Shown here: positions 3,044 to 63,953 of the stretch, piece by piece | Numbering within the stretch: the first letter of the stretch is position 1 | Layout: each line of letters starts with the position of its first letter | Source: Centroscyllium fabricii | Taxonomy: Eukaryota | DNA length: 64,000 nt | Assembly (NCBI GenBank): GCA_051313645.2 | Contig: JBNRSN020000003.1 | Location: 140,740,001 to 140,804,000, forward strand | Reading direction: 5' to 3' | Program-made: the position numbers and the translations under genes | The notes under the pieces: generated by a model | What the model was told of the DNA's origin: nothing | The model's input: only the letters and a program-made list of their open reading frames with translations | Databases searched by the model: none

Positions 3044-3416
3044 GCATGGTGGCGCAGTGGTTAGCACTGCTGCCTTGCAATAAGGAGCTCCTGGGTTCGA
3101 ATCCTGCTTGGCCCTTGAACTCTGCGTGGAGTTTGCATGTTCTCCCCGTGTTCGTGTGGGTTTCCTCCGGGTACTCCGGTTTCCTCCCACCACCCAAAGA
3201 CATGCAGGTTAGGTGAATTGGAGATACTAAAAATTGCCCATGAGTATGTGTGTGAGATATAGTTCTTAGAGCTGGGGACGTCAGGGGATATGGGGAAAAG
3301 GTAGGAGGGGGTGCTGGGTTTGGATGATCCACCATGATCTCATCAAAGAAATGGCAGAGCAGGCTCGAAGGGCCAAATGGCCTACTCCTGCTCCTATCTT
3401 CTGTGTGTTTCTGTGT
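3044..3416 (+). mobile_element. V-SINE with CR1 tail
   Basis: A box tggcgcagtgg, B box gggttcgaatcc, V-domain, tail ...ggcctactcctgctcctatcttctgtg. Confidence 0.9.
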
Positions 3417-4286: not shown

Positions 4287-4453
4287 AGGAGACTCCTGTA
4301 CTACTAGCTTGTGCCTACTACTCCGCCTGGCAGTTAGCGATTCCCTTCCTGCCTGTGCAGCCTTTACCTGCGGTGTAACTGATAGGCCATCAATAATCCA
4401 AGCGAGAGGTTTAAGGACTTAAAGGTAGGCTTTTAATAACAAAGGGGAAGCGG

Positions 4454-4528
4454 TGGCGTAGTGGTTATATCACTAGACTAGTAAGCCAGAGACTCAGTCA
4501 AATGCTCTGAGGATATGGGTTCAAATCC
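4454..4528 (+). promoter_or_regulatory. Type-2 internal Pol III promoter (A and B boxes)
   Basis: TGGCGTAGTGG starts 10 nt after the element start; GGTTCAAATCC follows. Both match the tRNA consensus. Confidence 0.8.
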
Positions 4529-4883
4529 CACCATGGCAGCTGGTGGAATTTAAATTCAATTCAATTTAATTCTGGAATTAAAATGTTAGTCTTAGTAATG
4601 GCGACCATGATACCATTGTCGATTGTTGCAAAAACCCATCTGGTTCACTAATGTCCTTTAGGGAAGGAAATCTGCCGTCCTTACCTGGTCTGGCCTACAT
4701 GTGACTCAAGACCCACAGCAATGTGGTTGACTCTTAATGCCCTCTGAAATGGCCTAGCAAGCCACTCAGTTGTAATCAACCGCTACGAAAAACAATAAGA
4801 ATAAAACCAGATGGACCACCCGGCATCGACCTCGGCACCGGAAATGACAACGTCAACGGCAAACCCGGCCCTGTCGACCCTGC

Positions 4884-7680
4884 AAAGTCCTCCTCACAAA
4901 CATCTGGGGACTTGTGCCAAAATTGGGAGAGCTGTCCCACAGACTAGTCAAGCAACAGCCTGACATAGTCATACTCACAGAATCATACCTTACAGCCAAT
5001 GTCCCAGACACCAGCATCACCATTCCTGGGTATGTCCTGTCCCACCGGCAGGACAGACCCACCAGAGGTGGTGGCACTGCGGTATACAGTCGGGAGGGAG
5101 TAGCCCTGGGAGTCCTCAACATTGACTCAGGACCCCATGAGGTCTCATGGCATCAAGTCAAACATAGGCAAGGAAACCTCCTACTAATTACCACCTACCG
5201 CCCTCCCTCAGCTGATGAATCAGTACTCCTCCATGTTGAACATCAATTGGAAGAAGCACTGAGAGTAGCAAGGGCACAAAATGTCCTCTGGGTGGGGGAC
5301 TTCAATGTCCATCACCAAGAGTGGCTCGATAGCACCACAACTGACCGAGCTGGCCGAGTCCTAAAGGACATAGCTGCCAGACTGGGTCTGCAACAGGTGG
5401 TGAGGGAACCAACAAGAGGGAAAAATCTACTTGATCTCGTCCTCACCAGTCTACCTGTTGCAGATGCATCTGTCCATGACAGCATTGGTGGAAGTGACCA
5501 CCGCACAGTCCTTGTGGAGACGAAGTCCCGTCTTCATGTTGAGGATACCCTCCACCGTGTTGTGTGGCACTACCACTGTGCTAAATGGGACAGATTTCGA
5601 ACAGATCTGGCAACTCAAAACTGGGCATCCATGTGGGCCATCAGCAGCAGCAGAATTGTATTCAACCACAATCTGTGACCTCATGGCCCGGCATATCCCT
5701 TACTCTACCATTACCATCAAGCCGGGAGATCAACCCTGGTTTAACGAAGAGTGCAGGAGAGCATGCCGGGAACAGCACCAGGCATACCGGAAAATGAGGT
5801 GTCAACCTGGCGAGGCTACAACACAGGACTACTTGCATGCCAAACAACAGAAGCAACATGCGATAGACAGAGCTAAGCGATCTCACAACCATCGGATCAA
5901 ATCAAAGCTCTGCAGTCCTGCCACATCCAGTCGTGAGTGGTGGTGGACTATTAAACAGTTAACAGGAGGAGGAGGCTCCAAAAATATCCCCATCCTGTGG
6001 AGCCCAGCACGTGAGTGCAAAAGACAAGGCTGAAGCATTTGCAACTATCTTCAGCCAGAAATGCCGAGTGGATGATCCATCTCGGCCTCCTCCTGAGGTC
6101 CCCAGCATCACAGATGCCAGTCTTCAGCCCATTCAATTCACTCCACGTGATGTCAAGAAACGGCTGAAGACACTGGATACTGCAAAGGCTATGGGCCCTG
6201 ACAACATTCCAGCAATAGTACTGAAGACTTGTGCTCCAGAACTAGCTGCGCCCCTAGCCAAGCTGTTCCAGTACAGCTACAACACTGGCATCTACCCAGC
6301 AATGTGGAAAATTGCCCAAGTATGTCCTGTCTACAAAAAGCAGGACAAATCCGACCCGGCCAATTACCGTCCCATCAGTCTACTCTCAATCATCAGCAAA
6401 GTGATGGAAGGTGTCGTCGACAGTGCTATCAAGCGGCACTTACTCAGCAATAACCTGCTAACTGACGCCCAGTTTGGGTTCCGCCAGGGCCACTCAGCTC
6501 CTGACCTCATCACAGCCTTGGTCCAAACATGGACAAAAGAGCTGAATTCCAGAGGTGAGGTGAGAGTGACTGCCCTTGACATCAAGGCAGCATTTGATCG
6601 AGTGTGGCATCAAGGAGCCCTGGCAAAGCTGAAGTCAATGGGAATCAAGGGGAAAACTCTCCATTGGTTGGAATCATACCTAGCACAAAGGAAGTTGGCT
6701 GTGGTTGTTGGAGGTCATTCATCTCAACCACAGGACATCACTGCATGAGTTCCTCAGGGCAGTGTCCTAGGCCCAACCATCTTCAGCTGTTTCATCAATG
6801 ACCTTCCCTCCATCATAAGGTCAGAAGTGGGAATGTTCGCTGATGATTGCACACTGTTCAGCACCATTCGAAACTCGTCAGATACTGACACAGTCCGTGT
6901 CCATTATGCAGCAAGACCTGGACAACATTCAGACTTGGGCTGACAAGTGGCAAGTAATATTCGCACCACACAAGTGCCAGGCAATGACCATCTCCAACAA
7001 ACGAGAGTCTAACCATCTCCCCTTGACATTCAATGCCATTATCATCGCTGAATCCCCCACTATCAACATCCTGGGGGTTACCATTGATCGGAAACTGAAC
7101 TGGACCAGCCATATAAATACTGTGGCTACAAGAGCAGGCCAGAGGCTGGGAATTCTGCGGCAAGTGTCTCACCTCCTGACTCCCCAAAGCCTTTACACCA
7201 TCTACAAGGCACAAGTCAGGAGTGTGATGAATACTCTCCACTTGCCTGGATGAGTGCAGCTCAAACAACACTCAAGAAGCTCGACACCATTCAGGATAAA
7301 GCAGGCCGCTTGATTGGCACTCCATCCACCACCTCCAACATATTCACTCCCTCCACCACCGGCGCACTGTGGCTGCAGTGTGTACCATCTACAAGATGCA
7401 CTGCAGCAACTCGCCAAAGCTCCTTCAACAGCACCTTCCAAACCCGCGACCTCTACCACTTAGAAGGACAAGGGCAGCAGACGCATGGGAACAGCACCAC
7501 CTTCAAGTTCCCCTCCAAGCCACACACCATCCTGACTTGGACCTGTATCGCCGCTCCTTCACTGTTGCTGGGCCAAAATCCTGGAACTCCCTTCCTAACA
7601 ACATTGTGGGTGTACCTACACCATACGGACTGCAGCGGTTCAAGAAGGCGGCTCACCACCATCTTCTCAAGGGCAATTAG
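4884..7680 (+). pseudogene. Endonuclease/reverse-transcriptase ORF, disrupted by frameshifts and one stop
   Basis: KVLLTNIWGL, VGDFNVHH, GSDH, YRPISLL, ALDIKAAFDRVWH, (G>stop at 6746)VPQGSVLGP, MFADDC. Confidence 0.9.
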
Positions 7681-7955
7681 GGATGGGCACTAAATGCAGG
7701 CCTAGCCAGCCAGCGACGCCCACATCCCATCAATGAACAATTAAAAAAAAACTAAGAACTGTGGTGCATGTTCCCACTGAGTTCTCCAGGTCGAATGGCT
7801 CAAGCCGCTCTGGAGTCCTCCATATAACAAAAGACAAGGGTGGAGCCCGACATATACAATAGACAAAGGTGGGCGGTACATACATTCCATACATTCCTAG
7901 CACAGGCAAGTCCAGGTGAAAAGCACAGTCTGATGAACATGCATATTTCATCACA

Positions 7956-10900
7956 TTCACCCCTTCTGACCGGGGTTGTGATAGTCCGCCCCGATCGACG
8001 CAACAGAACCTCGGGTTCAGGCCGGGTGTCTGTGGTGCCTTCCTGGGCATACCCATGTGCTGGGGGTGTGGCAGGTACTTCTGAGGGTGGTGTGGGCGGG
8101 ATGCCGTCATCTCCTGCCGGGGCGAGGTCCTTTATGGACACAGTGTCCTCACGCTCGTCGGCGTGTCTGACGTACGCGTACTGTGGGTTCGCGTGCAGTA
8201 GGTGTACTGCCTCTACCAGGGGGTCCGATTTGTGGCCTCTCACATGCTGCCGTAGTAGGACAGATCCTGGGGTGGAGAGCCACGAGGGTAGGGACACCCA
8301 TGAAGTTGATTTGCGGGGAAACGCAAACATCTTCTCGTGAGGGATGGTATTGGTCGCGGTGCACAGGAGCGACCTGATCGAGTGGAGTACATCCAGGAGT
8401 ACCTCCTGCCAGCGGGAGATAGGGAGGTCTCTGGACCTTAACGCTAAGGTGACCGCCTTCCATACTGTCGCGTTCTCCCTCTCCACTTGCCCATTACCCC
8501 GGGGGTTATAACTCGTGGTCCGACTCATGGCTATCGCTTTTGACAGCAGGTATTGGCGTAGCTCGTCGCTGATAAACGACGCCCCTCTGTCAGAGTGGAT
8601 GTAGCTTGGCATGCCGAACATGCAAAATAGGCTGCCGAGGCACTTGATGACCGTGGCACTGGTCATGTCTGGGCAGGGGTAGGCGAATGGGAAGCGGGAG
8701 TACTCGTCCACGATATTGAGGAAGTACACATTGCGATCGGTGGAGGGGAGGGGTCCCTTGAAGTCTAAGCTTAGGCGCTCAAATGGCCGTGTAGGTTTGA
8801 TCGGGTGGGCTCGGTCGGGCCTGTAAAATCGGGGCTTGCACTCCGCGCAGATGCGGCAGTTCCTGGTCATGGACCGGACCTCTTCAATGGAGTAGGGCAG
8901 GTTACGGGATTCTATCAGGTGGAATAGCCGGGTGACTCCCGGGTGGCAGAGGTCATTGTGGAGGCCCTGGAGCCTGTCTCCCTGGATGGTGGCACACATC
9001 CCTCGTGATGGGGCGTCGGGGGGATGCGTTGAGGACCCCCGGCCTATATATAATATACTCGAACGTAGAGTGTTCGATCTGCCACCTGAGGAGTTTGTCA
9101 TTTTTGATCTTCCCCCTCTGTTTATTATTAAACATGAAGGCTACCGACCGCTGGTCAGTAAGCAGGGTGAAGCGTTTCCCGACTAGGTAGTGCCTCCAGT
9201 GCCACACTGCCTCCACTGTAGCCTGGGCCTCTTTCTCTACCGAAGAATGCCTGGTCTCGGGCCCTTGGAGGGTTCTTGAGAAAAAGGCCACGGGCCGCCC
9301 ACCCTGATTGAGGGTGGCTGCTAGGGCGAAGTCAGACGTGTCACTTTCCACCTGGAAAGGGAGTCTTCATCTACTGCCCGCAGCGCGGCCCTTTCAATAT
9401 CACGCTTGATACTGTTGAAGGCGGCATGGGCCTCAGCCGTGAGCGGGAAGGATATTGATTTCAGGAGGGGGCGGGCCTTGTCTGCATAATTGGGGACCCA
9501 TTGGGCGTAGTAGGAGAAGAACCCCAGGCACCTTTTCAGGACCTTAGGGGTGCTTGGTAGGGGGAGCTCCCATAGGGGGTGCAATCGGTCGGGGTCCGGA
9601 CCAATGTTCCCGTTTTCCACCACGCAGCCCAGGATGCAGAGGCGCGTGGTATTAAAAACGCACTTATCCTCGTTATAGGTAAGGTTGAGCCTGTGGGCGG
9701 TTTTCATGAACCTTGCGAGGTTCGAGTCGTGGTCTTGTTGGTCGTGGCCGCAGATGGTGACGTTGTCAAGGTATGGGAAAGTGGCTGCTAACTGGTTCTC
9801 GTCGACCATGTGGTCCATCTCCCTCTGGAAGACCGAGACCCCATTCGTTACCCCGAAGGGGACACTGAGGAAGTGGTAGAGGCGTCCGTTCGCCTCAAAG
9901 GCGGTATATGGACGGTCCTCCGGCCTAATGGGGAGCTGGTGGTATGCCGATTTCAGGTCAATGGTGGAAAATACCCGGTATTGGGCAATTTCATTGACCA
10001 TATCTGATATGCGGGGCAGTGGGTAGGCATCCAGCTGGGTGTATAGGTTAACTGTCTGGCTATAAGCTATCACCATCCGCTTCTTTTCGCTCCCCTTGAC
10101 TACTACTACCTGTGCGTGCCATGGGCTGGTACTGCATTCAATGATACCCGCCGTAGTCTTTCAACTTCCGCCGCAATGAACCGTCTGTCCTCCTGGCTGT
10201 ACCGCCTGCTCTTGGTCGCTATGGGGGCGACAGTTTGGAGCGAGATTGGCGAACAGGGAGGGAGGCTTGACCTTCAGGGTAGCCAGACAGCACACTGTGA
10301 GGGGCGGCTGGGACCCACCGAAGGTGAGCGTGATATTTGGTGGTGGCATTACCAGTAGTTTAAAATCTTTATAATCGTTGCCCTTGACTGACAACATAAC
10401 CATGCAGAACCCCATAATGTGTGAGGTGTGTGTTTTATCCGCCATGGCGATTTTGCCCTGTGTAGGGACTACTGTTAGTGAGAGTTTCTTCACCAAACTG
10501 GGGTGGATGAAGCTTTCAGTGCTCCCGCAGTCAATCAGGCATTTAACATTGTTCCCGTTGACTCTTATGTCCATCATCGATTTCGACAGTGGGTGTGGCC
10601 TGGACTGATCCACCATAATCGTGGCCTCCTGGGGGTCCGTGGGGGTGGGACAAGATGGCGTCCAAACTGGCTGCCCCCCCCCCGGCGCGCACGCGGCGGT
10701 GGAGGAGCTGGAAGAGTTGGGGCAAGATGGCGTCCAAGATGGCTGCCCCCACGGCACGCACGCGGCAGTGGAGGAGCTGGAGGCGGGGTTCCCTCTGCAG
10801 ACCTTGCCAAAGTGCCCTTTCTTCCCGCATCTGAAACAGGTGGTGCCTTTCGCTGGGCACAGAAGCTTCGAGTGCCTGTCCTGACCGCAGAAGTAACATT

Positions 10901-11603
10901 TCGGGCCCCGATGCATCGTGGCAGTAGTGGGGCTCCTGGATGGAGGTTGGGGCTCCGATGGTGCTGCGCTGGCCTGAAAACCGGGAGGCGAAGATGGCTT
11001 CCAAGATGGCTGCCCCCACGGCGCGCACGAGTTGGGGTGGGCCGCGTGCCCTGAGGAGTAAGACTCAGCGTTCCTCTGGGCCATATCTAGCGATCGCGCT
11101 GTGTCCATTGCTTGCTTTAAATCTAGCTTCTCTTTCTCGAACATCTTCTGCCGAATGTAATTCGAGCTGAGGCCTGCGATGAAGGCGTCACGGATCAGCT
11201 CTTCTGTGTGCACGGTGGCAGACACAGCCTTGCAATTACCGTCTCTGCCCAGTACTTTTAGGTGCAACATAAAATCCTCCAGTGACTCACTAGGCCGCTG
11301 CTTGCGGGTAGTTAGAAGATGTCTGGCGTATACCTCATTCACTGGCCGCACGTAGTGGGCCTTCAGGGTGGTACAGGCATCTTCATAGCTGGGGGCATCC
11401 TTAAGGAGGATTGAGACCCGATGGCTCACCCGATTCCGTAGGATACCCAGCTTCACGTCCCCGGTAGTGGTCGCGGATGCTATCGTGGCGGCGGAGGTTT
11501 CCAGAAACAATTCAAAGTACTGGAACCAGTGTCCGAACTGTGTGGCGGCATCAGAGGTGTGTTGGTCTAAATCTAAGCGCTCTGGTATCAGGAGCCGATC
11601 CAT
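7956..11603 (-). pseudogene. gag-pol: gag-pol of element A, frameshifted
   Basis: CCHC-type knuckles (CFRCGKKGHFGKVC), LIDCGS protease, YLDN RT, RNase H, and HHCC/DDE integrase (ORFs 10161-11603, 9321-10076, 8953-9351, 7800-9101). Confidence 0.9.
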
Positions 11604-12519
11604 CTCGATGTTTTAGTTTTTAAAATTGATAGGCCATCAATAATCCAAGCGAGAGGTTTAAGGACTTAAAGTTAGGCTTTTAATAACTAAGAACTGTGGT
11701 GCATGTTCCCACACTGAGTTCTCCAGGTCGAATGGCTCAAGCCACTCTGGAGTCCTCCATATAACAAAAGACAAGGGCGGAGCCCGACATATATAATAGA
11801 CAAAGGTGGGCGGTACATACATTCCTAGCACAGGCAAGTCCAGGTGAAAAGCACAGTCTGATGAACATACTTATTTCATCACAGTAACCAGCTGATTAAA
11901 CGTGATATCCACGATGTCCTCAGCATCGCGAATGCTCCAGTATCTATCCATTCGCAGCTCCAGTGCCGCAATGCGGTCTGCCAGTAGCTGCAGCTGGATA
12001 CACTTCCTGCACACATGGTCATCACCTGTGTCCCTGATTTCCCTCATAGTGCAGGAGGAGCATGCCATGGGGCCGAGCTGTGCTGTCATGACTTAACCCT
12101 TCAATTAATTTAAATCAAATCAAATCAATACCACCAATTACACTACCATTAAATGATATACTCAAGGGCCCTTGGCTACGAGCACTCCCCGATACACAAC
12201 AGAGACCTTAGAAACTATAACCACAAAAATTAAGTCCTTCTAAACTTTATAAACTGTTAACCTTAACTGTTAAACTGTAGAGTAGTATAAATACCCACCT
12301 GACCGTACTCACCCAATCGGCTGCTTCCTCTTGCCCGTGTCACTTTTTGAATTGTGGCATGGCTCTGGAATGCCACTACTGATCGCCACCATTGTCTCCC
12401 CCCCACCCCCCCCAGCTCAGTGAGGTTATGAAGATGTGCTTCCCCTCTGCCCATCTGCTGCTGTTCATATGCCACCTTTGCCTGCAAGAGAAAGGGAAGT
12501 GTGTCAGGGAAGTGGGCAG

Positions 12520-14324
12520 GGCCGGGACCGATGTCCTAGCGGGAGTGTTTGCTAGTGCTCTGGGGGATGGTTTAAACTAAAATGGCAGGGGATTGGGAAC
12601 CTGAGCGGGGAGACAGAGGAAAGGGAAACAAGGATAAAAGCAAAAGACGGGAACGAGAAAATCAAAATTGGCAGACTGAGAAATCAAGGGTTTAAATCAA
12701 ACATGGCCACAGTAAATAATAATTCTAAATGATTTAAGAGCATTAAAAAAACAAGCCTGAAGGCTTTGTGTCTTAATGCGAGGAGCATTCATAATAAGGT
12801 GGATGAATTGGCTGTGCAAATAGAGGTAAACGAATATGATATGATTGGGATTGCGGAAACATGGCTCCAGGATGGCCAAGGCTGGGAACTCAACATCCAA
12901 GGATATTCAATATTCAGGAAAGATAGGCAAAAAGGTAAAGGAGGTGGGGCAGCATTGCTGGTTAAAGAGGGGATTAACACAATTGTAAGGAAGAATATTA
13001 GCTCTGATGATGTGGAATCTGTATGGGTAGAACTGAGAAATATCAAGGAACAGAAAATGTTAGTGGGAGTGGTATATAGATCTCCAAACAGTAATGCAGA
13101 GGTCAGAGGTGGCATTAAAAGGGAAATTAAAGAAGCGTACAATAAAGGCACAGCAGTTATCATGGGAGACATTAATCTACATCTAGATTGGGCTAACCAA
13201 ATTAGTAACAATACTGTGGAGGAGGAATTCCTGGAGTGTATACGGGATGGTTTCCTGGAACAATATGTTGGGGAACCAACTAGAGATCAGGCCATCCTAG
13301 ACTGGGTATTATGTAATGAGAAAGGATTAATTAGCAATCTTGTTGTGCGAGGCCCCTTGCTCGGAGCGATCGTAATATGATAGAATCCTTCATTAAGATG
13401 GAGAGTGAAGGAGTTGACTCAGAGACTAGGGTCCTGAATTTAAATAAAGGAAACTACAATGGTATGAGGCACGAGTTGGGTAGGATTGATTGGGGAATGT
13501 CACTCAAAGGGTTGATGGTGGATAGGCAATGGCAAACATTCAAAGATCGCATGGATGAACTACAGAATTTGTTCATCCCAGTTTGGCATAAAAATAAAAC
13601 AAAAAAGGTGACTCAACCATGGCTAACAAGGGAAATTAAGGATAGCCTAAGATCCAAGGAGAGGGTATATAAATTGGCCAGAAAAAGCAGTAAACCTGAG
13701 GATTGGGAGCAGTTTAGGATTCAACAAAGGAGGACAAAGGGATTAATTAAGATGGAGAAAATAGAGTATGAGAGTAAGCTTGCAGGCATCATAAAAACTG
13801 ACTGTAAAAGCTTTTATAGATATGTGAAGAGAAGAAGATTGGTTACATCAAGTGTAGGTCCCTTGCAGTCAGAATCAGGGGAATTTATAATGGGGAACAA
13901 AGAAATGGCAGACCAATTAAATACATACTTTGGTTCTGGCTTCACAAAGGAGGAGACAAACAGCCTTCCAGAGATGTCGGGGAACATGGGGTCTAATGAA
14001 AGGGAGGAACTGACAGAAATCAGTATTTGTTGAGAAATGGTGTTAGAGAAATTGCTGGGATTGAAGACCGATAAATCCCCAGGGCCTGATGATCTACATC
14101 TTAGGGTACTTAAGGAAGTGGCCCTAGAAATAGTGGATGCATTGCTGGTCATCTTCCAAAATTCGATAGGCTCTGGAACAGTACCCATGGATTGGAGGGT
14201 AGCTAATGTTACCCCTCTGTTCAAAAAAGGTGGTAGAGAGAAAATGGGGATTTACGGACTGGTAAGCCTGACATCGGTAGTGGGGAAAATGCTAGAGTCC
14301 ATTACAAAAGATATAATAGCAGAG
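12520..14324 (+). mobile_element. CR1 LINE: ORF1 end plus ORF2 APE and linker
   Basis: CLNARSI, ETWL, LDWVL, PWLT and KSPGPD motifs (ORFs 12766-14435). Confidence 0.9.
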
Positions 14325-14519
14325 TACAGGAAATGCTTGTTTAACCGGCACATCGATATCCGGAATTCTCTATTAACTGGCAAAATTCTCATTCGAAAAC
14401 AACACCTCAATAACCAGCTATGTTGTCGAGTCTGAGTCTCCTGTGTGGCTGAGTTAATCAGTGGGGGTAGTTCTCCAAACTGCCATAATCCACATCCATT
14501 TAACACAACATTCTGTAGG

Positions 14520-17500
14520 TGACGTATCGTCAATATCTCTTAATAAAAGACTGGACGAGTAGTTACCGTAACTATAGGCTTTTAATAACTTACTTTGGAG
14601 CTACCCTCCGAACGAACATCAGAACAGAATGAGGGAGCCTCGGTCAGTCCTCACCTATAAAGGCCTCACCTGGGGGAGGAGTTAGAGGTGTGGCTGACCT
14701 GGCTCCACGACAGTGTTACAGGCTGTGTATCACACACAGCCAATTGTTGGCAACAATAATTCAGTGGTACATATACATATTATGGGTTACCACATTCACC
14801 CCTTCTTGAAAATTTTGAGTCCGGGGGGGGGTGAATGGACCGAGTAGTTCAATATCAGTTTGTCCGGCGGTCGTGTCAGCCTGGAGGACCGCCGGAGTTC
14901 CGGTGATGGTTCTTCGTGGTCCGTGCTGCTCGAGTCCGTTGGTAGTGACAGCGGCTCTGGTGCCGTAGTTTCGGATGGTGATGGTCTCAGATGGTCCGAG
15001 CTATCGGAGTGGTGGTCTTGGGCTGGCCACGGCTGGGGCTCTGGAAACCTCGGAGGCCATCGTAGGTGTAGGGGGTGTTCTGGATACTGTGGCTGGGCGG
15101 GCTGCTGGCCGACCAGGGGCTCTGCTGCGGTGTTTCCTGCGGGCGCCAGGTCCCTAATTGAAACGGTGTCCTCACGCCCGTCCGGGAACTGTACAAACGC
15201 GTATTGCGGGTTCGCATGCAGGAGCTGCACCTTGTCCACCAGGGGCTCGGTCTTGTGGCCACCGACGTGTCTCTTAAGGAAGACCGGCCCCGGTGTCGTG
15301 AGCCATGGAGGAAGAGCTGTCCCCGAAGTCGACTTCCTGGGAAAAGCAAAAATCAAATCATGAGGGGTGGCGTTAGTGGCCGTACACAGGAGAGAGCGTA
15401 TAGAATGCAGCGCGTCTGGGAGGACTGCCTGCCAATGGGCCACTGGAAGGCCTCTGGACTTCAGAGCCAGGGTGACCGCATTCCAGATGATCGCATTCTC
15501 CCTTTCTACCTGGCCGTTCCCCCGGGGGTTATAACTGGTCGTTCTGCTCGTGGCAACCCCTTTCTGGAGCAGAAACTGACGCAGTTCATCGCTCATGAAC
15601 GATGACCCCCGGTCGCTATGGATGTAGCTGGGGAGACCGAAAATGGCGAACAGCGTGGTGAAGTGTTTCATCACCGTTGCGCTCGTCATATCTGCGCAGG
15701 GGAAGGCGAAGGGGAAGCGGGAGAACTCATCTACGACCGTGAGGAAGTATGAGTTGCGGTCGGTGGTGGGGAGGGGGCCTTTGAAGTCCACGCTGAGACG
15801 TTCAAAGGGGCGGGTGGCCTTGATGAGGTGCACCGTGTCTGGCCGGAAAAATTGGGGTTTGCACTCGGCGCAAACAGGGCACTCTCGGCTCATAGCCTTG
15901 ATCTCCGTGATGGAGTAGGGGAGGCTACGGGATCTGACGAAGTGGGCGAGTCTGGTGACACCCAGGTGGCAAAGGCGGTCGTGGAGGTCCTTCAGCCGGT
16001 CTAGCTGGGCACTGGCGCACGTTCCCCTGGACAGTGCGTCCGGGGGTTCATTGAGTTTACCTGGTCGCTAAAGAATGTCGTACTCGTAAGTCGAGAGTTC
16101 GATCCGCCACCGCAGGATCTTATCATTCTTGATTTTACCCTTCTGTTTATTATTAAACATAAACGCCACCGACCGTTGGTCGGTGAGAAGGGTCAAACGC
16201 TTACCGGCCAGGTAATGACGCCAGTAGCGCACGGCCTCCACGATGGCCTGGGCCTCCTTTTCCACTACAGAGTGGCGAGTTTCAGGTCCCTGTAGGGTGC
16301 GGGAGAAAAACGCTACGGGCCTGCCTGCCTGATTCAGGGTGGCAGCAAGGGCGAAGTCCGAAGCGTCGCTCTCCACCTGGAAGGGGATGGATTCATCAAC
16401 AGCGAGCATGGTCGCCTTGATGATGTCTTCCTTTATCCGGGCGAATGCCATTTGGGCTTCTACCGAAAGGGGGAAAACGGCAGCCTTGAGGAGTGGTCTA
16501 GCCTTGTCCGCGAACTGTGGGACCCATTGTGCGTAATAGGAGAAACATCCTAGGCATCTCCTCAAGGCTTTAGGGTTGTGAGGTAGGGGCAGTTCTTGAA
16601 GGGGTCGCATACGGTGTGGGTCGGGGCCGAGGACCCCGTTTTCCACCACGTATCCGAGGATGGCGAGCCGGTCTGTATTAAAGACACATTTGTCTTTGTT
16701 ATACGTGAGGTCCAGCTTATCCGCCATGTCGCGGAATTTGGCCAGATTGGCATCGTGGTCCTGCTGGTCGTGGCCGCAGATGGTCACGTTGTCCAGGTAA
16801 GGGAAAGTGGCCTGCAACTCGTTCTGGTCAACCATGCGGTCCATCTCCCTTTGGAACACTGACACTCCGTTGGTCACGCCGAAAGGGACCCGGAGGAAGT
16901 GGTAGAGCCGACCGTTCGCCTCGAAGGCGGTGTAGGGGCGGTCGGCTTTCCGGATCGGGAGTTGGTGATACGCCGACTTAAGGTCGATCGTGGAGAACAC
17001 CTTATATTGGGCGATCTGGTTGACCATTTCCGAGATGCAGGGGAGGGGGTAGGCGTCGAGCCCGGTGTAGCGGTTGATAGTCTGGCTGTAATCGATCACC
17101 AGCCGCTGTTTCTCGCCAGACTTCACCACTACTACCTGGGCCCGCCAGGGGCTGGTGCTGGCTTCAATTATCCCCTCCTTCAGCATACGCCCGACCTCCG
17201 ACCTGATAAACGTGCGATCCCCCACACTGTACCGCTGACTCTTGGTAGCAATAGGTTTGCACTTGGGGTCGAGGTTGGCGAACAGTGAGGGGGGGTCGAT
17301 TTTCAGGGTGGAGAGGCCGCAGGCCGGGCTCCGCTTTGGGAAGGGACAGTCCCGGCTACTGACGGTGAGGGGGGGCAAGGTCCCGCCGAACTCCATTGTC
17401 ATGCTCTTGAGGTGGCACTGGAAATCCAGACCTAGTAAGGCTGGGGCACACAACTGCTGGAGGGTGTACAATTTAAAATTACGGTACACGCACCCCTTGA

Positions 17501-19349
17501 CTGTGAGCGTGACGGAGCAGTAGCCGGTGACGTCCGCGGTGTGGGACTTTGAAGCAAGGGAGACTTGGTAGTTCGAGGGCAGGATCTGCAGTCCGTAGCG
17601 CTGCACTGTATCGGGGTGCACAAAGCTCTCCGTGCTTCCAGTGTCAAATAGGCAATCGATAATATGGCCGTTTATTTTAATAGGCATTATCGAATTCGAC
17701 AGAGTGTGTGGCCTGTCCTGGTGCACTCTGGGTATGGCTGAAGCCGACATGTACTTTTGTGTGTGGGGGCACCCTGCTGGTTGGGGCTGTATACAAAATG
17801 GCGGCGCCCCTGGCTCGCACATGGTGGGGCCTTGGAGACAAAATGGCGGCGCCCCTGGCTTGCAAATGGCGGGCCGCTGGGGACAAAATGGCGGCGCCGA
17901 GGGGTCGCACATGGTGGGCCGCTGGGGTCGAGATGGCGGCGCCCGTGGTTCGCACGCGGCTGACCGCTGTGAGCGCGCTGGCGGCGCCCGTGGTTCGCAC
18001 GCAGCGGGCCGCGGTGACTGGGTTGGCGGCGCCCGTGGTTCGCACGCAGCGGGCTGCGGTGGTCGGGTTGGCGGTGCCCGTGATTCGCACGCAGCAGGCC
18101 GCGTTGGGTCTGCTGCTGGCGTTGGGGGGTCGCGCTTTGCCGGCCTTTGCCGCATCGGGGTGGGAGCTGGGGGAGCTTCCCTTCTACCCCCGGACCGTCG
18201 CTGGATCGCGCTGCTATTGCAGCTTACCAGAGGTCTGTCGGAGCTTTCACAGGCTGCGCTGTTGTACCTGGAGTTGGGTGCTGCTGGTGCTGATCTGCAA
18301 GCCTTTGCGTAATGTCCCTTTTTGGCGCACCTCTCGCAGGTCGCGGTCCTTGCTGGGCATCTCGCTCGCGGGTGCAGTCCCTGGCCGCAGAAATAGCAGC
18401 GTTTGTCCTTTGTGGCTGTCGCAGCCATCGTGGGGGTCTCGACCCGTTGTGGTGCTGCCCAGGCCTGGGCCCGTTGTGGCGCGGCCCACATGTCGTAGGC
18501 CTGCGGGTTTGTGCCGCTGTACGCCTGCAATTTATTGCGTGCTCCTTCAACGGAGTTAGCTATGGCGATAGCCTCTTCCAGAGACAAAGAGTCTTTTTCG
18601 AGCAGCCGCTGGCGGGCTTCCATGCACCTCAGGCCGGTTACGTACGCGTCTCGGACGAGGAGGTTCGCCTCCTCTTCTGCTGTCCGGGCTTGGCAGCCAC
18701 AGACCTGTACCAGGGCCTGTAGCACTTGCTCAAACTGTTCATTGGTCTCACCCGGTAGTTGTGGTCTGGTTGCGAGCACATGTCTGGCGTAGACCGAATG
18801 GACCGGGCGCTCGTAGCATTTCCTCAGCTTTTCCACTGCCCCTGGGTAGGTTTTGGCGTCTCGGATGAGGGAGAATACTCGGCTGGAGATCCTAGACCGG
18901 AGAACCTGTAGCTTGTTCCCATCGGTTGTAGCCTTGGCGGCGTCCATATAGGCCTCCAGGAGACCGAACCAGTGTTCGAACGTGGTGGCGGCGGCTGGGT
19001 CCTGTGGACTGATATCCAGCTTTTCTGGCTTTACTGCACCGCTCTCCATTTCAAAAATGTTAAGTTATTAAAATTGACGTATCGTCAATATCTCTTAATA
19101 AAAGACTGGACGAGTAGTTACCGTAACTATAGGCTTTTAATAACTTACTTTGGAGCTACCCTCCGAACGAACATCAGAACAGGATGAGGGAGCCTCGGTC
19201 AGTCCTCACCTATAAAGGCCTCACCTGGGGGAGGAGTTAGAGGTGTGGCTGACCTGGCTCCACGACAGTGTTACAGGCTATGTATCACACACAGCCAATT
19301 GTTGGCAACAATAATTCAGTGGTACATATAAATATTATGGGTTACCACA
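14520..19349 (-). mobile_element. Ty3/Gypsy LTR retrotransposon B (young, no tRNA PBS)
   Basis: 275-bp LTRs 14520-14794 and 19075-19349 with 3 visible differences; TSD GTAGG; PPT aaggggtgaa. Confidence 0.97.
14796..19049 (-). pseudogene. gag-pol: Single gag-pol frame of element B with one nonsense codon (TAG at 16068-16070)
   Basis: The 993-aa ORF continues in frame into integrase; element D has TAC (Tyr) at the same codon. LFDTGS, YLDN and DFKGP/SDRG/VER motifs. Confidence 0.92.
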
Positions 19350-29674: not shown

Positions 29675-30100
29675 TATATTTATTCATTCACGGGATGTGG
29701 GCATTGCTGACAAGGCCAGCATTTATTGCCCATCCCTAATTGCACTTAAGAATGTGGTGGTGAGCCGCCTTCTTGAACCACTGCAGTCCGTGTGGTGAAG
29801 GTACTCCCACAGTGCTGTTAGGGAGGGAGTTCCAGGATTTTGACCCAGCGACGATGAAGGATCGGCGATATACTTCTAAGTCGGGATAGTGTGTGACTTG
29901 GAGGGGAACTTGGAGGTGGTGGTGTTCCCATGCACCTGCTGCCCTTGACTTCTAGGTAGTAGAGGTCACGGGTTTGGAAGGTGCTGTCGAAGAAGCCTTG
30001 GCGAATTGCTGCAGTGCATCTTGTAGATGGTACACACTGCAGCCACGTTGGAAGGAGTGAATGTTAATGGTGGATGGTGTGTCGATCAAGCGGGCTGCAG
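29675..30100 (-). mobile_element. Older 3' fragment of the tRNA-headed LINE family
   Basis: Reverse complement aligns with about 7300-7740. Confidence 0.85.
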
Positions 30101-47375: not shown

Positions 47376-47740
47376 CACAGAAACACAGAAGATAGGAGCA
47401 GGAGTAGGCCATTCGGCCCTTCGAGCCTGCTCAGCCATTTTTTGATGAGATCATGGCTGATCATCCAAACCCAGCACCCCCCCATCTACCCTCTCCCCAT
47501 ATCCCCCAACACCCCCAACTCTAACTCACACACATACTCAGGGGCAATTTTTTTAGTATCTCCAATTCACTTAACCTGCATATCTTTGGGTGGTGGGAGG
47601 AAACCGGAGTACCCGGAGGAAACCCACATGAACACGGGGAGAACATGCAAACTCCACGCAGAGGTGTCCCGGGCCAAGCAGGATTCGAACCCAGGAGCTC
47701 CTTATTGCGAGGCAGCAGTGCTAACCACTGCGCCACCATG
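47376..47740 (-). mobile_element. V-SINE, same subfamily as 3044-3416
   Basis: Reverse complement closely matches 3044-3416. Confidence 0.9.
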
Positions 47741-52950: not shown

Positions 52951-53411
52951 TTTTTTTATTCATTGATGGGATGTGGGCGTCGCTGGCTGGCTAGGCCTGC
53001 ATTTAGTGCCCAACGCTAATTGCCCTTGAGAAGATGGTGGTGAGCCGCCTTCTTGAACCGCTGCAGTCTTACTGTTTATCGTAGCGGTTGTTTAAAACTG
53101 AGTGGCTTGCTAGGCCATTTCAGAGGGCATTAAGAGTCAACCACATTGCTGTGGGTCTGGAGTCACATGTAGGCCAGACAAGGACGGCAGATTTCCTTCC
53201 GTAAAGGACACTAGTGAACCACATGGGTTTTTGCAACAATGGTATCATGGTCGCCATTACTAAGACGAACATTTAATTCCAGAATTAAATTGAATTGAAT
53301 TTAAATTCCACCAGCTGCCGTGGTGGGATTTGAACCCATATCCTCAGAGTATTTGACTGAGCCTCTGGCTTACTAGTCTAGTGACATAACCACTGCGCCA
53401 CCACCTCCCCC
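52951..53411 (-). mobile_element. SINE made of the 5' ~350 nt and 3' ~120 nt of the LINE at 4444-7750
   Basis: Reverse complement matches 4444-4800 joined directly to 7628-7745. Confidence 0.93.
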
Positions 53412-58810: not shown

Positions 58811-59321
58811 TTAGGTATGAGGATATCGTCATCTTCTTTGGTTTCAGCCCCGCCGCTGGCCACGGCCTCAGCAAAGGCCGCTTCAATGATGGCGAGCACC
58901 GTCGTCTTCATGAGGGTAAGAACATGCAGCTGCACCTCTCCCCCGCCGGTTAGCTCCTGCTGTTTCTGGTTGTTCGCCACCTCTCCCTGATCAGTGAGTG
59001 TAGTGCAATCTGTTTGGGTGATGTGCAACGTTCCCCGTAAGCTGCACTGCCCTCTGCGCAACCTGCCTCCCCCAATGCGTAGCCCATTCAAATCTTAGCT
59101 CGTGCGCTCTATTTAGAATGAAAAAGTCGGTTAGCGGCCTGCACCGGACCTTGCAGAGGACTCCGCGGCTGTGTAGCTTAGTAGGAACATTGGTGATGTC
59201 CCTGTCATGTGATGGCAGTGTGTGCAAGCTGTGAGAAGTGGGTGTGAGGCTTGCAGCAATGCTAAGTGTGTGAAGGTGAGGTGAAGCTATGAATGTTAGA
59301 TACGAGTCGCGATTGATAGAG

Positions 59322-62300
59322 TGACGTATCGTCAATTCTCTCAATAAAAGACTTAGACGAGTAGTTACCTTAACTACGGGCTTTTATTAACTAACTTTGG
59401 AGCTATACTCCGAACGAACATCCAGAACAGAATGAGGGAGCCCGGCCAGTCCTCACCTATAAAGGGCCTCACCTGGGGGGAGGAGTTAGAGGTATGGCTG
59501 ACCTGGCTCCACGACAGTGTTGCAAACATGATAACAGAACAGCCAATATTGGCGACAATATTGCAGTGGTAAAACTATGTATAATACGGTTACCACATTC
59601 ACCCCTTCTTGAAAATTTAAGTCCGGCGGGGTGAATGTAGAAAGCAGTTCACTATAAGTTTGTCCGGCGGTCGCGTCTGTCTGGAGGACTGCCGGGGCTC
59701 TGGCAGAAGTTCATTATGTTCCGTCCCGCTCGGGTCCGGTGGTGGTGACGGTGGCTCTGGTGCCGAAACTTCGGATGCTGGTGGCCTCGGTTGATCTGAG
59801 CCATCGGAATGGTGGTCGTGGGCCGGCCACGGCTGGGGCTCTGGATACCTCGGAGGCCACTGTAGATGCAGGGGGTGTTCAAAATACCGTGGCTGGGCGG
59901 GCTGCTGCCCGACCAGTGGCTCTGCTGTGGTGCTCCCGGCGGGCGCTAGGTCCCTGATGGAGACGGTGTCCTCGCGCCCGTCCGGGAACTGTACGTAGGC
60001 GTATTGGGGATTCGCATGCAGGAGCTGCACCTTGTCCACCAGGGGGTCGGTCTTGTGGCCACGGACGTGCTTTCTAAGGAAGACCAGCCCCGGTGTCGTG
60101 AGCCATGGAGGAAGAGCTGTCCCCGAAGTCGACTTCCTGGGAAAGGAAAACATCAAGTCATGAGGGGTGGCGTTAGTGGCCGTACATAAAAGAGAGCGTA
60201 TTGAATGCAGCGCGTCTGGGAGGACTGCCTGCCAATGGGCCACTGGAAGGCCTCTGGACTTCAGAGCCAGGGTGACCGCCTTCCAGATGATCCCATTCTC
60301 CCTTTCTACCTGGCCGTTCCCCCGGGGGTTATAACTGGTCGTCCTGCTCGAGGCAACCCCTTTCTGGAGCAGAAACTGACGCAGTTCGTCGCTCATGAAC
60401 GACGACCCCCGGTCGCTATGGATGTAGCTGGGGAGACCGAAAATGGCGAACAGCGTGGTGAAGTGTTTTATCACCGTTGCGCTCGTCATATCTGGGCAGG
60501 GGAAGGCGAAGGGGAAGCGGGAGAACTCATCTACGACCGTGAGGAAGTATGAGTTGCGCTCGGTGGTGGGGAGGGGGCCTTTGAAGTCCACGCTTAGACG
60601 TTCAAATGGGCGGGTGGCCTTTATGAGGTGCACCGTGTCTGGCCGGAAAAATTGGAGTTTGCACTCGGCACAAACAGGGCACTCTCGGGTCATAGCCTTG
60701 ATCTCCGTGATGGAGTAGGGGAGGCTACGGGATCTAACAAAGTGGGCGAGTCTGGTGACACCCGGGTGACAGAGGCGATCGTGGAGATCCTTCAGCCGGT
60801 CTAGCTGGGCACTGGCGCACGTTCCCCTGGACAGTGCGTCCGGGGGTTCATTGAGTTTACCTGGTCGGTAAAGAATGTCATACTCGTAAGTCGAGAGCTC
60901 GATCCGCCACCGCAGGATCTTATCATTCTTGATCTTACCCTTCTGTTTATTATTAAACATAAACGCCACCGACCGTTGGTCGGTGAGAAGGGTAAAACGC
61001 TTACCGGCCAGGTAATGACGCCAGTAGCGCACGGCCTCCACGATGGCCTGGGCCTCCTTTACCACTGCAGAGTGGCGAATTTCGGGTCCCTGTAAGGTGA
61101 GGGAGAAAAACGCTACGGGCCTGCCTGCCTGATTCAGGGTGGCGGCAAGGGCAAAGTCCGAAGCGTCACTCTCCACCTGGAAAGGGATGGATTCATCAAC
61201 GGCGTGCATGGTCGCCTTGATAATATCTTCCTTTATCCGGGCGAATGCGGTTTGGGCTTCTACCAAGAGGGGGAAGACGGCAGCCTTAAGGAGTGGTCTA
61301 GCCTTGTCCGCAAACTGTGGGACCCATTGTGCGTAATAGGAGAAAAATCCTAGGCATCTCCTCAAGGCTTTGGGGTTGTGAGGTAGGGGCAGTTCTTGTT
61401 GGGGGCGCATACGCTGTGGGTCGGGGCCGAGGACCCCATTCTCCACCACGTATCCGAGGATGGCGAGCCGGTCTGTCTTAAAGACACATTTGTCCTTGTT
61501 ATACGTAAGGTCCAGCTTTTCCGCCGTGTCAAGGAATTTGGCCAGATTGGCATTGTGGTCCTGCTGGTCATGGCCGCAGTTGGTCACGTTGTCCAGGTAA
61601 GGGAAGGTGGCCCGCAACCCGTTCTGGTCAACCATGCGGTCCATCTCCCGCTGGAATACCGACACTCCGTTGGTCACGCCGAAGGGGACCCGGAGGAAGT
61701 GGTAGAGCCGACCGTTCGCCTCGAAGGCGGTGTCGGGAGGTCGGCTTTCCGGATCAGGAGTTGGTGATACGCCGACTTAAGGTCGATCGTGGAGAACACC
61801 TTATATTGGGCGATCTGGTTGACCATGTCCGAGATGCGGGGGATGGGGTAGGCGTCGAGCCCGGTGTAGCGGTTAATAGTCTGGCTGTAGTCAATAACCA
61901 GCCGCTGTTACTCGCCAGTCTTCACCACCACTACCTGGGCCCGCCAGGGGCTGGTGCTGGCTTCAATTATCCCCTCCTTCAGCATACGCCCGACCTCCGA
62001 CCTGATAAACGTGCGATCCCCCACACTGTACCGCCGACTCTTAGTAGCAATAGGCTTGCAGTTGGGGTCGAGGTTGGCGAACAGTGAGGGGGGGTTGATT
62101 TTCAGGGTGGAGAGGCCGCAGGCCGGGCTCCGCTTTGGGAAGGGACTGTCCCGGCAACTGACGGTGAGTGGGGGCAAGGTCCCGCCGAACTCCATTGTCA
62201 CGCTCTTGAGGTGGCACTGGAAATCCAGACCTAGTAATGCTGGGGCACACAACTGCTTGAGGGTGTACAACTTAAAGTTACGGTACACACAACCCTTGAC

Positions 62301-63953
62301 TGTGAGCGTGACGGAGCAGTAGCCGGTGACGTCCGCGGTGTGGGACTGTGAAGCAAGGGAGACTTGGTAGCGCATGGGCAGGATCTGCAGTCCGCAGCGC
62401 TGCACTGTATCAGGGTGGATAAAGCTCTCTGTGCTTCCAGTGTCGAACAGGCAATTAGTAACATGGCCGTTAATTTTGATCGGCATGATCGAGTTCGATA
62501 GGTTGTGTGGCCTAGCCTGGTCAACTTTAGGTATGGCTGAGGCCAAAGTGTGCCTTTGTGTGTGGGGGCCCCTTGCTGGTTGGGGCTGTACACAAGATGG
62601 CGGCACCCGTGGCTCGCACATGGCGGGGCGCTGGAGACAAGATGGCGGCGCCGAGGGGTCGCACATGGCGGGCCGCTGGAGACAAGATGGCGGCACCGAG
62701 GGGTCGCACATGGTGGGCCGCTGGAGACAAGATGGTGGCGCCCGTGGTTCGCACGCAGCGGGCCGCGGTGACTGGGTTGGCGGTGCCCGTGGTTCGCACG
62801 CAGCGAGCCGCGGTGGTTGGGTTGGCGGTGCCCGTGATTCGCACGCAGCGGGCCGTGCTGGGTGTGCTGCTGGCGTTGGGGGGTCGCGCATGGCTGGCCG
62901 TGGCTGAGCTTGGCGTGCTGTGGGTGCAGCCGGCCTTTGCCGCATCAGGGTGGGAGATGGGGGCGCTTTTCTTCTACCCCCGGACCGTCGCTGGATCGCG
63001 CTGCTATTGCAGCTCACCTGAGGCCTGGCGGAGCTTTCACAGGCTGCGCTGTTGTACCTGGAGTTGGGCGCTGTTGGTGCTGACCTGCAGGCCTTCACGT
63101 AGTGTCCCTTTTTGGAGCACCTCTCACAGGTCGCGGTCCTCGCTGGTCATCTTGCTCGTGGATGCAGTCCCTGACCGCAGAAGTAACACCGTTTGTCTGC
63201 CTTTGCGGCTGTCGCAGCCATCGTGGGGGTCTCGACCCGTTGTGGTGCTGCCCAGGCCTGGGCCCGTTGTGGCGTGGCCCATGCGTCGTAGACCTGCGGG
63301 TTTGTGCCGCTGTACGCCTGCAGCTTGTTACGTGCCCCTTCTACAAAGTTTGATATGGAGATCGCCTCCTCTAAGGTCAAAGAGTCTTTCTCAAGCAGCC
63401 GCTGGCGGGCTTCAACGCACCTCAGGCCTGTTACGTAGGCATCACGGACGAGGAGATTCGCCTCTTCCACTGCTGTCCGTGCTTGGCAGCCACAGACCCA
63501 TACCAGGGCTTGGAGTGCTTGTTCAAATTGTTCATTTGTCTCACCCGGCAGTTGCGGTCTGGTCGCGAGCACATGTCTGGCGTAGACCGAGTGGACCGGG
63601 CGCTCGTAGCATTTCCGCAGTTTCTCCACTGCCGCTGGGTATGTTTTGGCGTCTCGGATGAGGGAGAATACTCGGCTGGAGATCCTAGACCGGAGAACTT
63701 GCAGTTTGTTCCCGTCGGTTGTAGCCTTGGCGGCGTCCATATAGGCCTCCAGGAGACCGAACCAGTGTTCGAAAGTAGTGGCGGCGGCTGGGTCCTGTGG
63801 ACTGGTGTCCAGCTTCTCTGGCTTTACCGCACCGCTCTCCATTTCAAATTTTTCTTAGTTAATAAAATTGACGTATCGTCAATTCTCTCAATAAAAGACT
63901 TAGACGAGTAGTTACCTTAACTACGGGCTTTTATTAACTAACTTTGGAGCTAT
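59322..63953 (-). mobile_element. Ty3/Gypsy element D, sister of B (no tRNA PBS); 5' LTR interrupted
   Basis: 3' LTR 59322-59597, 5' LTR from 63869, disrupted gag-pol 59617-63842. Confidence 0.95.

Follow-up and report, generated by a model that had tools for sequence, protein, structure and literature searches.

The 3.3-kb retrotransposon at positions 4444-7750 of the DNA stretch analysed here is an old and abundant variant of the Zenon family of long interspersed nuclear elements (LINEs) that carries a head of the type known from short interspersed nuclear elements (SINEs). The stretch, called the window below, comprises 64,000 nucleotides (nt) of the shark Centroscyllium fabricii (assembly GCA_051313645.2, contig JBNRSN020000003.1, positions 140,740,001 to 140,804,000 of the forward strand). 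Judged from its sequence, the element is probably an autonomous LINE which RNA polymerase III (Pol III) transcribes and which is translated without a cap. The original prediction had proposed a protein-coding Pol III retrotransposon from this single copy; the junction between head and coding frame, a consensus free of T-tracts and the lack of an ORF1 all stood up, whereas the Zenon identity, the lack of an AUG start and the SINE-like offspring had been missed.

The features by which Zenon is recognised, i.e., one open reading frame (ORF) with an apurinic/apyrimidinic endonuclease (APE) and a reverse transcriptase (RT), no ORF1, and a poly(A) tail, are all seen here. The ORF of the focal copy is broken by frame changes near positions 5633, 5997, 6905, 7230, and 7340 and by a stop at 6746-6748. 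Intact ORFs of 971-972 codons are present in the natural copies L044, L261, and L262, and Pfam analysis of L044 identified Exo_endo_phos (42-241) and RVT_1 (528-774), in agreement with the predicted single APE-RT frame without ORF1. Matches of the element protein in PDB were L1 ORF2p and R2 only. The leader runs straight into the coding frame as described before, but its length had been overestimated at about 440 nt: since the open frame of the focal copy begins at 4776, the non-coding leader measures about 330 nt, and 440 nt is the span from the element start to the endonuclease homology.

Searching the genome with the leader-ORF junction yielded 2401 candidates. Among the 40 that were scored, 39 matches other than the focal copy were 98-99% identical, and the junction is common to many copies in differing flanks. 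The 39 copies that we fetched were chosen for carrying this junction; all sit in different flanks, and their 5' ends lie at nt 1-4 of the element in 27 copies and at nt 9-16 in three, the remaining nine being truncated in the leader. None of 20 copies chosen by their RT region extends to the head; all are 5'-truncated, as expected from target-primed reverse transcription. Target-site duplications are clear in few of 30 copies (L023, L026, and L037). Young copies differ on average by 1.1% from the column majority, and an older subfamily, about 85% identical to the young one, has an identical layout. A locus considered as a distant Zenon family, L185, proved to represent decayed copies of the old subfamily. 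Taking the commonest codon of each column, the two subfamilies differ synonymously at 124 and non-synonymously at 95 of 970 codons; change amounts to 19.5% at synonymous and 4.6% at non-synonymous sites, and dN/dS is 0.21; the majority ORF of the old subfamily contains one stop. The Zenon-type ORF is under purifying selection and is intact in some copies.

The element begins with a tRNA-like head. As predicted, an A box (TGGCGTAGTGG, 4454-4464) and a B box (GGTTCAAATCC, 4518-4528) stand at its start, and we take them to match the type-2 promoter consensus. Presumably the head resembles tRNA-Thr(AGU); neither ARAGORN nor Rfam calls a tRNA in it. Because ARAGORN misses this head, its blank results on 45 relative loci are not evidence, and a scan of 80 relative loci for the B-box pattern gave two isolated matches. 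Between the young and old subfamilies the head shows 26.6% substitutions with the A and B boxes kept, and its extra hairpin carries three adjacent double-compensatory pairs in this comparison of only two lineages. The element thus has the features of a type-2 unit, namely conserved internal A and B boxes and a start just upstream; in a ray consensus introduced below the B box is degenerate. Folding z-scores of head plus leader were not significant. The extra hairpin of the old subfamily (window 4473-4511; CTGGA...TCCAG with a 7-nt loop) has the appearance of an anticodon arm duplicated in tandem.

Zenon elements with a poly(A) tail and without ORF1 have been reported from five elasmobranchs and are, according to the authors, formally undeposited (PMC13343379). 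Judged by eye over the first 400 nt of each, seven elasmobranch Zenon consensuses from four sharks and a ray open with the same head and leader (PMC13343379), and SquAca_Zenon-1 is nearly identical to the old subfamily of C. fabricii. The hagfish and coelacanth consensuses, viewed in the same way, have another start without such a head and contain runs of four or more T within the first 400 nt. Since the ray consensus is headed too, the join of head and ORF would predate the shark-ray split. The text of the paper contains no match to 'tRNA' or 'polymerase III' and its supplement text none to 'tRNA'; a whale-shark preprint, in its accessible part, mentions CR1-Zenon by name only. A tRNA-headed coding LINE was found described nowhere in the literature searched, a search that lay outside Repbase and Dfam. 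In an RT tree without a named Zenon reference, the element groups, at a node drawn open (92/95), with unnamed relatives of 47-51% RT identity and with amphioxus and brittle-star proteins, and it stands away from Vingi. A contig of another organism bridges window positions 4703-5073.

Runs of T stop Pol III. The sense strand of the focal copy (4444-7750, 3307 nt) contains no run of four or more T (T4), exactly the ten TTT that had been estimated, and 17 runs of four or more A, of which about 15 had been counted before. Few T4 are expected by chance, as the original prediction had cautioned: 5.0 after mononucleotide shuffling (P = 0.0035), 3.0 after synonymous-codon shuffling of the ORF (P = 0.019), and 2.65 after dinucleotide shuffling (P = 0.055, weak alone and in that respect a point against Pol III transcription). 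The deficit against codon-shuffled controls is therefore present, and the plain absence of T4 is by itself only moderately significant (P 0.004-0.06). Near-runs give a sharper picture. With protein and codon usage fixed by synonymous shuffling, words with four T among five letters number 2 against 12.2 expected (P<=0.0005), TTT 9 against 16.7 (P = 0.0015), and TT 91 against 111, and runs of A, C, and G in the ORF are at expectation. The old subfamily likewise has no T4 and a single 4-of-5-T word against 13.0 expected, and the commonest letters per column are free of T4 in both subfamilies. Phe plus Leu content lies below that of all 120 protein matches listed.

Other elements do not share this shortage. 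In the C. fabricii genome, a control single-ORF young LINE of low T content (T = 0.19), which we assign to Vingi by motif, carries 4-6 T4 in each ORF, and none of four copies shows a significant deficit. Two CR1-type families contain 5 and 4 T4, and their 4-of-5-T counts match expectation; all of 30 further RT loci have T4 at or above expectation. Among 80 metagenome loci of distant relatives, 68 have an ORF of 450 codons or more, and T4 occurs in 67 of these 68. The observed/expected ratio of 4-of-5-T words is 0.17 here, compared with a minimum of 0.69 among the 66 such relatives without N. Within the window, the older Zenon fragment at 29677-30098 holds no T4, and the CR1 TTTT at 13812 is present and is the sole one within 12760-14378, both as described before. 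T-clusters of the sense strand are strongly avoided, in a manner that is strand-specific and T-specific.

Two observations were made along with these controls. Loci L267-L270 (e.g., L267:1088-4147) represent a very young Vingi-like LINE with many intact 1019-codon frames, an AUG start, and a (GAA)n tail, and this LINE has probably been active recently. L200, L202, and L205 belong to another non-LTR family with an LLYADDLVLL motif that is about 25% identical to the Zenon ORF and has T4 above expectation.

Several points weigh against reading the T deficit as avoidance of Pol III terminators. T precedes T[ACG]N codons in 8 of 98 cases and non-T codons in 200 of 839. TT is thus scarce even in contexts that cannot give rise to a T4, and a mutational bias specific to this strand could play a part. 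Individual young copies gain T4 freely (8 in 109 kb), and because only about 0.7-1.6 fixed T4 gains are estimated to be expected between the subfamilies, the observed zero is not significant. L080, a distant CR1-group metagenome contig of 3018 nt with 912 codons, also has no T4 against 5.8 expected; as its 5' end is missing, a second headed LINE may be present there. Finally, the relatives among the DNA controls are distant ones, and the nearest (40-43% identical proteins) lie outside the comparison.

An alternative is that the element is an RNA polymerase II (Pol II) LINE with a captured tRNA head that serves as an RNA structure, as a TFIIIC-dependent enhancer or insulator, or as a 5' processing signal, the T deficit reflecting mutational bias of the RT or a disadvantage of U-rich RNA under selection. 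The literature assigns LINE transcription to Pol II (PMC5786205, PMC2666806), the TT depletion in contexts unable to form T4 fits, and the covariation of the head hairpin indicates that the shape of the RNA is selected, something not strictly required of a promoter. Yet in equally T-poor Vingi, CR1, and other RT elements of this genome, T-tracts are as frequent as expected or nearly so, the copies begin sharply at the first base of the tRNA-like head, and deletion derivatives amplify with the same head. We consider Pol II transcription unlikely.

Translation of a Pol III transcript would likely proceed without a cap, and the leader offers a candidate element for it. Its conserved block (155 nt) differs by 3.2% between young and old subfamilies, below the 4.6% at non-synonymous sites of the ORF, and is nearly unchanged by eye across the printed heads from five species. 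The ORF has no in-frame AUG before the endonuclease; the first Met is residue 285 in L044, 208 in L261, and 286 in L262, late in or past the endonuclease. Because all 11 leader AUGs open short frames, the leader is a poor fit to scanning. Near its end, the stem-loop at 4744-4769 is the minimum free energy fold in all three fragments that contain it, with z-scores that are not significant, and 100% of its cells are paired in seven natural copies, with changes of the G-C to G-U type only. A 12-nt variable linker separates it from GCUA, which is complementary to the loop. The GCU at 4782 belongs to the reading frame of the long ORF and lies three codons past an in-frame TAA. This frame is kept in 35 of 38 young copies (the other three were not scorable), in 10 of 14 old copies and, by eye, in four of seven published heads (white shark, ray, whale shark, and catshark). 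The distance from GCU to an endonuclease anchor is 117 nt in young and mostly 120 nt in old copies, and the codon after GCU differs (ACG, ACA, or AAA).

Given transcription by Pol III, we tentatively prefer a start in which an anticodon mimic sets the frame. Against it count that the pairing of loop and GCUA was noticed post hoc, comprises only 4 bp, and shows no compensatory change, and that three published Squalus heads, as printed, lack the GCU frame. Rfam (E<=10) matched no family of internal ribosome entry sites (IRESs), and a helix search found no PKII/PKIII, L1.1, or SLIV/SLV architecture. A more ordinary start of a Pol III RNA, which overlaps with the interpretation favoured here, is possible, if somewhat doubtful. 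It would begin either at the near-cognate ACG at 4785, which stands in a fair Kozak context and follows GCT in both subfamilies, or at the AUG of 4749 with read-through of UAG-CAA, which is a leaky stop context; AUG-GCC-UAG-CAA lies in the main frame. ACA or AAA follows GCT in four published heads, however, and read-through would in this genome have to pass the second stop (TAA) as well, in a frame that is lost in the whale-shark head as printed.

An AUG start with frameshifting was set aside, as the +1-frame AUG of published heads and the old subfamily is not ATG (ATA or other) in any of 38 young copies. The leader is not the Deu domain of SacSINE1 either: the published Deu core in the supplementary alignment of PMC7245038 is unlike it, and one 15-nt Deu core motif occurs at chance level in the window and is absent from the element. 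The element protein and the anticodon-like stem-loop were sought in viral contigs, and neither was present. As a separate observation, the segment after the head (ACGGCAG in most copies, 4533-4540) is complementary to a leader hairpin loop (CTGCCGT, about 4672-4680). By eye, a comparable complementarity can be made out in several of the published heads, and the two segments may form a long-range pseudoknot.

At the 3' end, AATGAA is mostly followed by one to five T and then by an A run; four or more T with three or more A behind them occur in 8 of the 48 tails from young copies and in 5 of the 17 classed as old. In this respect Zenon tails resemble those of T+ SINEs as described in PMC8466645. 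Such T-runs can arise after insertion, and the survey covers tails of this element only with no Pol II control, which lessens their weight for Pol III termination.

The element has also given rise to short derivatives. A 470-nt SINE-like family joins element nt 1-357 to nt 3185-3306. It is represented by 4099 candidates in the genome, and 39 scored matches besides the window copy are 93-96% identical over about the full length. Of 14 loci that were fetched, 13 show this junction as printed, whereas in the last one only the 5' part is seen. Its head differs from that of the young LINE at one position in about 350 columns; given this match and a junction inside coding sequence, the SINE-like family derives from the LINE. 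Contigs of other organisms contain further leader-to-tail joins, with left ends at 4737-4774 and right ends at 7665-7669, which suggests that such joins arose repeatedly with most of the conserved block retained.

This origin argues against the possibility that the headed element is a non-autonomous giant SINE or a recurrent chimera of LINE body and SINE head, dependent for its mobilisation in trans on a headless master that supplies the protein. In favour of that model, the majority of copies are broken, and none of the 20 RT-chosen copies reaches the head. The dN/dS between two headed subfamilies, the near-identical young head of the SINE-like family, and the presence of the head on every elasmobranch consensus examined in its printed part speak against it, and we regard it as very improbable.

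Under the interpretation that we favour, Pol III transcription of an autonomous LINE, TFIIIC would bind the A and B boxes of the head, and Pol III would start at the first G and read the 3.3 kb with no terminator intervening, stopping at a T-run in or past the tail; the RNA would include an A tail or acquire one. Ribosomes would be drawn in by the conserved leader with no need for a cap, the anticodon mimic would pair with the GCU at 4782, and the next codon would be decoded first. The APE-RT protein would act in cis by target-primed reverse transcription, and internal deletions that keep head, leader, and tail would yield SINEs mobilised in trans. The furthest-reaching version, in which the family has been a LINE on SINE rules since before the shark-ray split, with a coding Pol III transcript, a factor-independent tRNA-mimic IRES that would parallel the intergenic IRES of dicistroviruses outside viruses, and repeated birth of SINEs by deletion, strikes us as rather unlikely in its entirety.

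Table 1. Positions of the element, its parts, and related sequences in the window
Feature	Position	Strand	Remarks
Full-length decayed copy, young subfamily of the tRNA-headed Zenon (CR1-group) LINE	4444-7751	+	about 95-98% identical to 39 copies, up to 3.3 kb
tRNA-derived head	4444-4535	+	A box 4454-4464, anticodon-like arm 4473-4489, extra hairpin 4493-4511, T-arm
T-arm of the head		+	contains B box 4518-4528
Conserved non-coding leader block	4620-4774	+	candidate cap-independent translation element, not Deu domain
Anticodon-like stem-loop	4744-4769	+	7-nt loop CUAGCAA (4754-4760)
GCUA complementary to loop UAGC	4782-4785	+	candidate frame-setting pseudoknot
Single ORF	4776-7680	+	basic N-terminal stretch, APE endonuclease about 4899-5500, RT about 6344-7085; broken here
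3' untranslated region	7681-7751	+	AATGAA end, short T stretch, oligo(A) tail
SINE-like internal-deletion derivative	52951-53410	-	element nt 1-357 + 3185-3306
3' fragment, older subfamily of the Zenon-type LINE	29677-30098	-	83% identical to focal copy

The older fragment listed in Table 1 is 88-91% identical to other genomic copies. Few bases past the A tail of the focal LINE begins a Ty3/gypsy-type long terminal repeat (LTR) element (window 7752-11889, minus strand) with an integrase frame at 7800-9140 and repeats at 7747-7961 and 11682-11889. Two 4.6-kb copies of an LTR-type element (14519-19158 and 59321-63952) are 90% identical and related to the element at 8.1-10.3 kb, and further relatives lie at 36.2-39.8 kb. 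Repeated elements of about 370 nt at 3045-3415, 682-1070, and 47376-47740 resemble, in our estimation, HE1-type V-SINEs.

The published elasmobranch Zenon elements (CarCar, HypSab, RhiTyp, ScyCan, and SquAca_Zenon; PMC13343379), as far as printed, share one APE-RT ORF, the lack of ORF1, poly(A), and a length of about 3.3 kb with the C. fabricii element. The lepidopteran Zenon derivative Persaeus is likewise short and non-autonomous, with a Zenon 5' end and 3' end, but is described without tRNA homology or a Pol III promoter (PMC6740152), whereas the shark LINE and its derivative have the corresponding sequences. In Bov-tA and CoeSINE4, too, a tRNA head containing A and B boxes is joined to 5' and 3' parts of LINE origin; for such bipartite tRNA SINEs, deletion first and addition of the head second has been proposed (PMC5786205). 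Like the shark tails, those of the T+ SINEs B2, Dip, and Ves have a rudimentary T-run before the A (PMC8466645). SacSINE1 and other DeuSINEs have a tRNA head, SacSINE1 in a shark host, and a length similar to that of the SINE-like family, but the SacSINE1 tail is assigned to L2-2_CM and the Deu core is absent from the shark Zenon leader, SacSINE1 being compared by its description (PMC5499810). In Bov-tA, CoeSINE4, and the T+ SINEs, as described, the sequence is non-coding, whereas the shark head sits on a full coding element.

The leader invites comparison with type 6 intergenic region (IGR) IRESs of dicistroviruses, which are likewise about 150-190 nt long. They start at a non-AUG codon and have a stem-loop, a variable linker, and a frame-setting codon mimic (PMC10275262, PMC12221177); the candidate pairing of loop and GCUA would correspond to their domain 3, which sets the frame by the anticodon-mimic pseudoknot PKI. 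GCU, ACA, and ACU are common first codons among those described. Unlike them, the shark leader has a pairing of only 4 bp and no identified PKII/PKIII, SLIV, or SLV, and it lies in a retrotransposon instead of an RNA virus.

SINEs are short and non-coding, and with a selected ORF of 971 codons the 3.3-kb element is not itself a SINE. The R2 LINE is co-transcribed by RNA polymerase I and freed by a ribozyme; its uncapped RNA has a structured 5' region but lacks a conserved AUG. It is thus a LINE made outside Pol II, as proposed for the shark element, without an internal promoter of its own such as the shark element has. LINEs and SINEs are commonly divided into Pol II-transcribed coding and Pol III-transcribed non-coding elements (PMC5786205, PMC2666806). 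If the proposed transcription holds true, a coding Pol III element that occurs in nature, has persisted for long, and exists in many copies would go against this rule and provide a test bed for the translation of uncapped RNA. SINE birth would then be a single step, with the head present first and the deletion second, the reverse of the published order. The small size of the element (3.3 kb), the promoter that it brings along, and the intact copies found in nature make these proposals directly testable.

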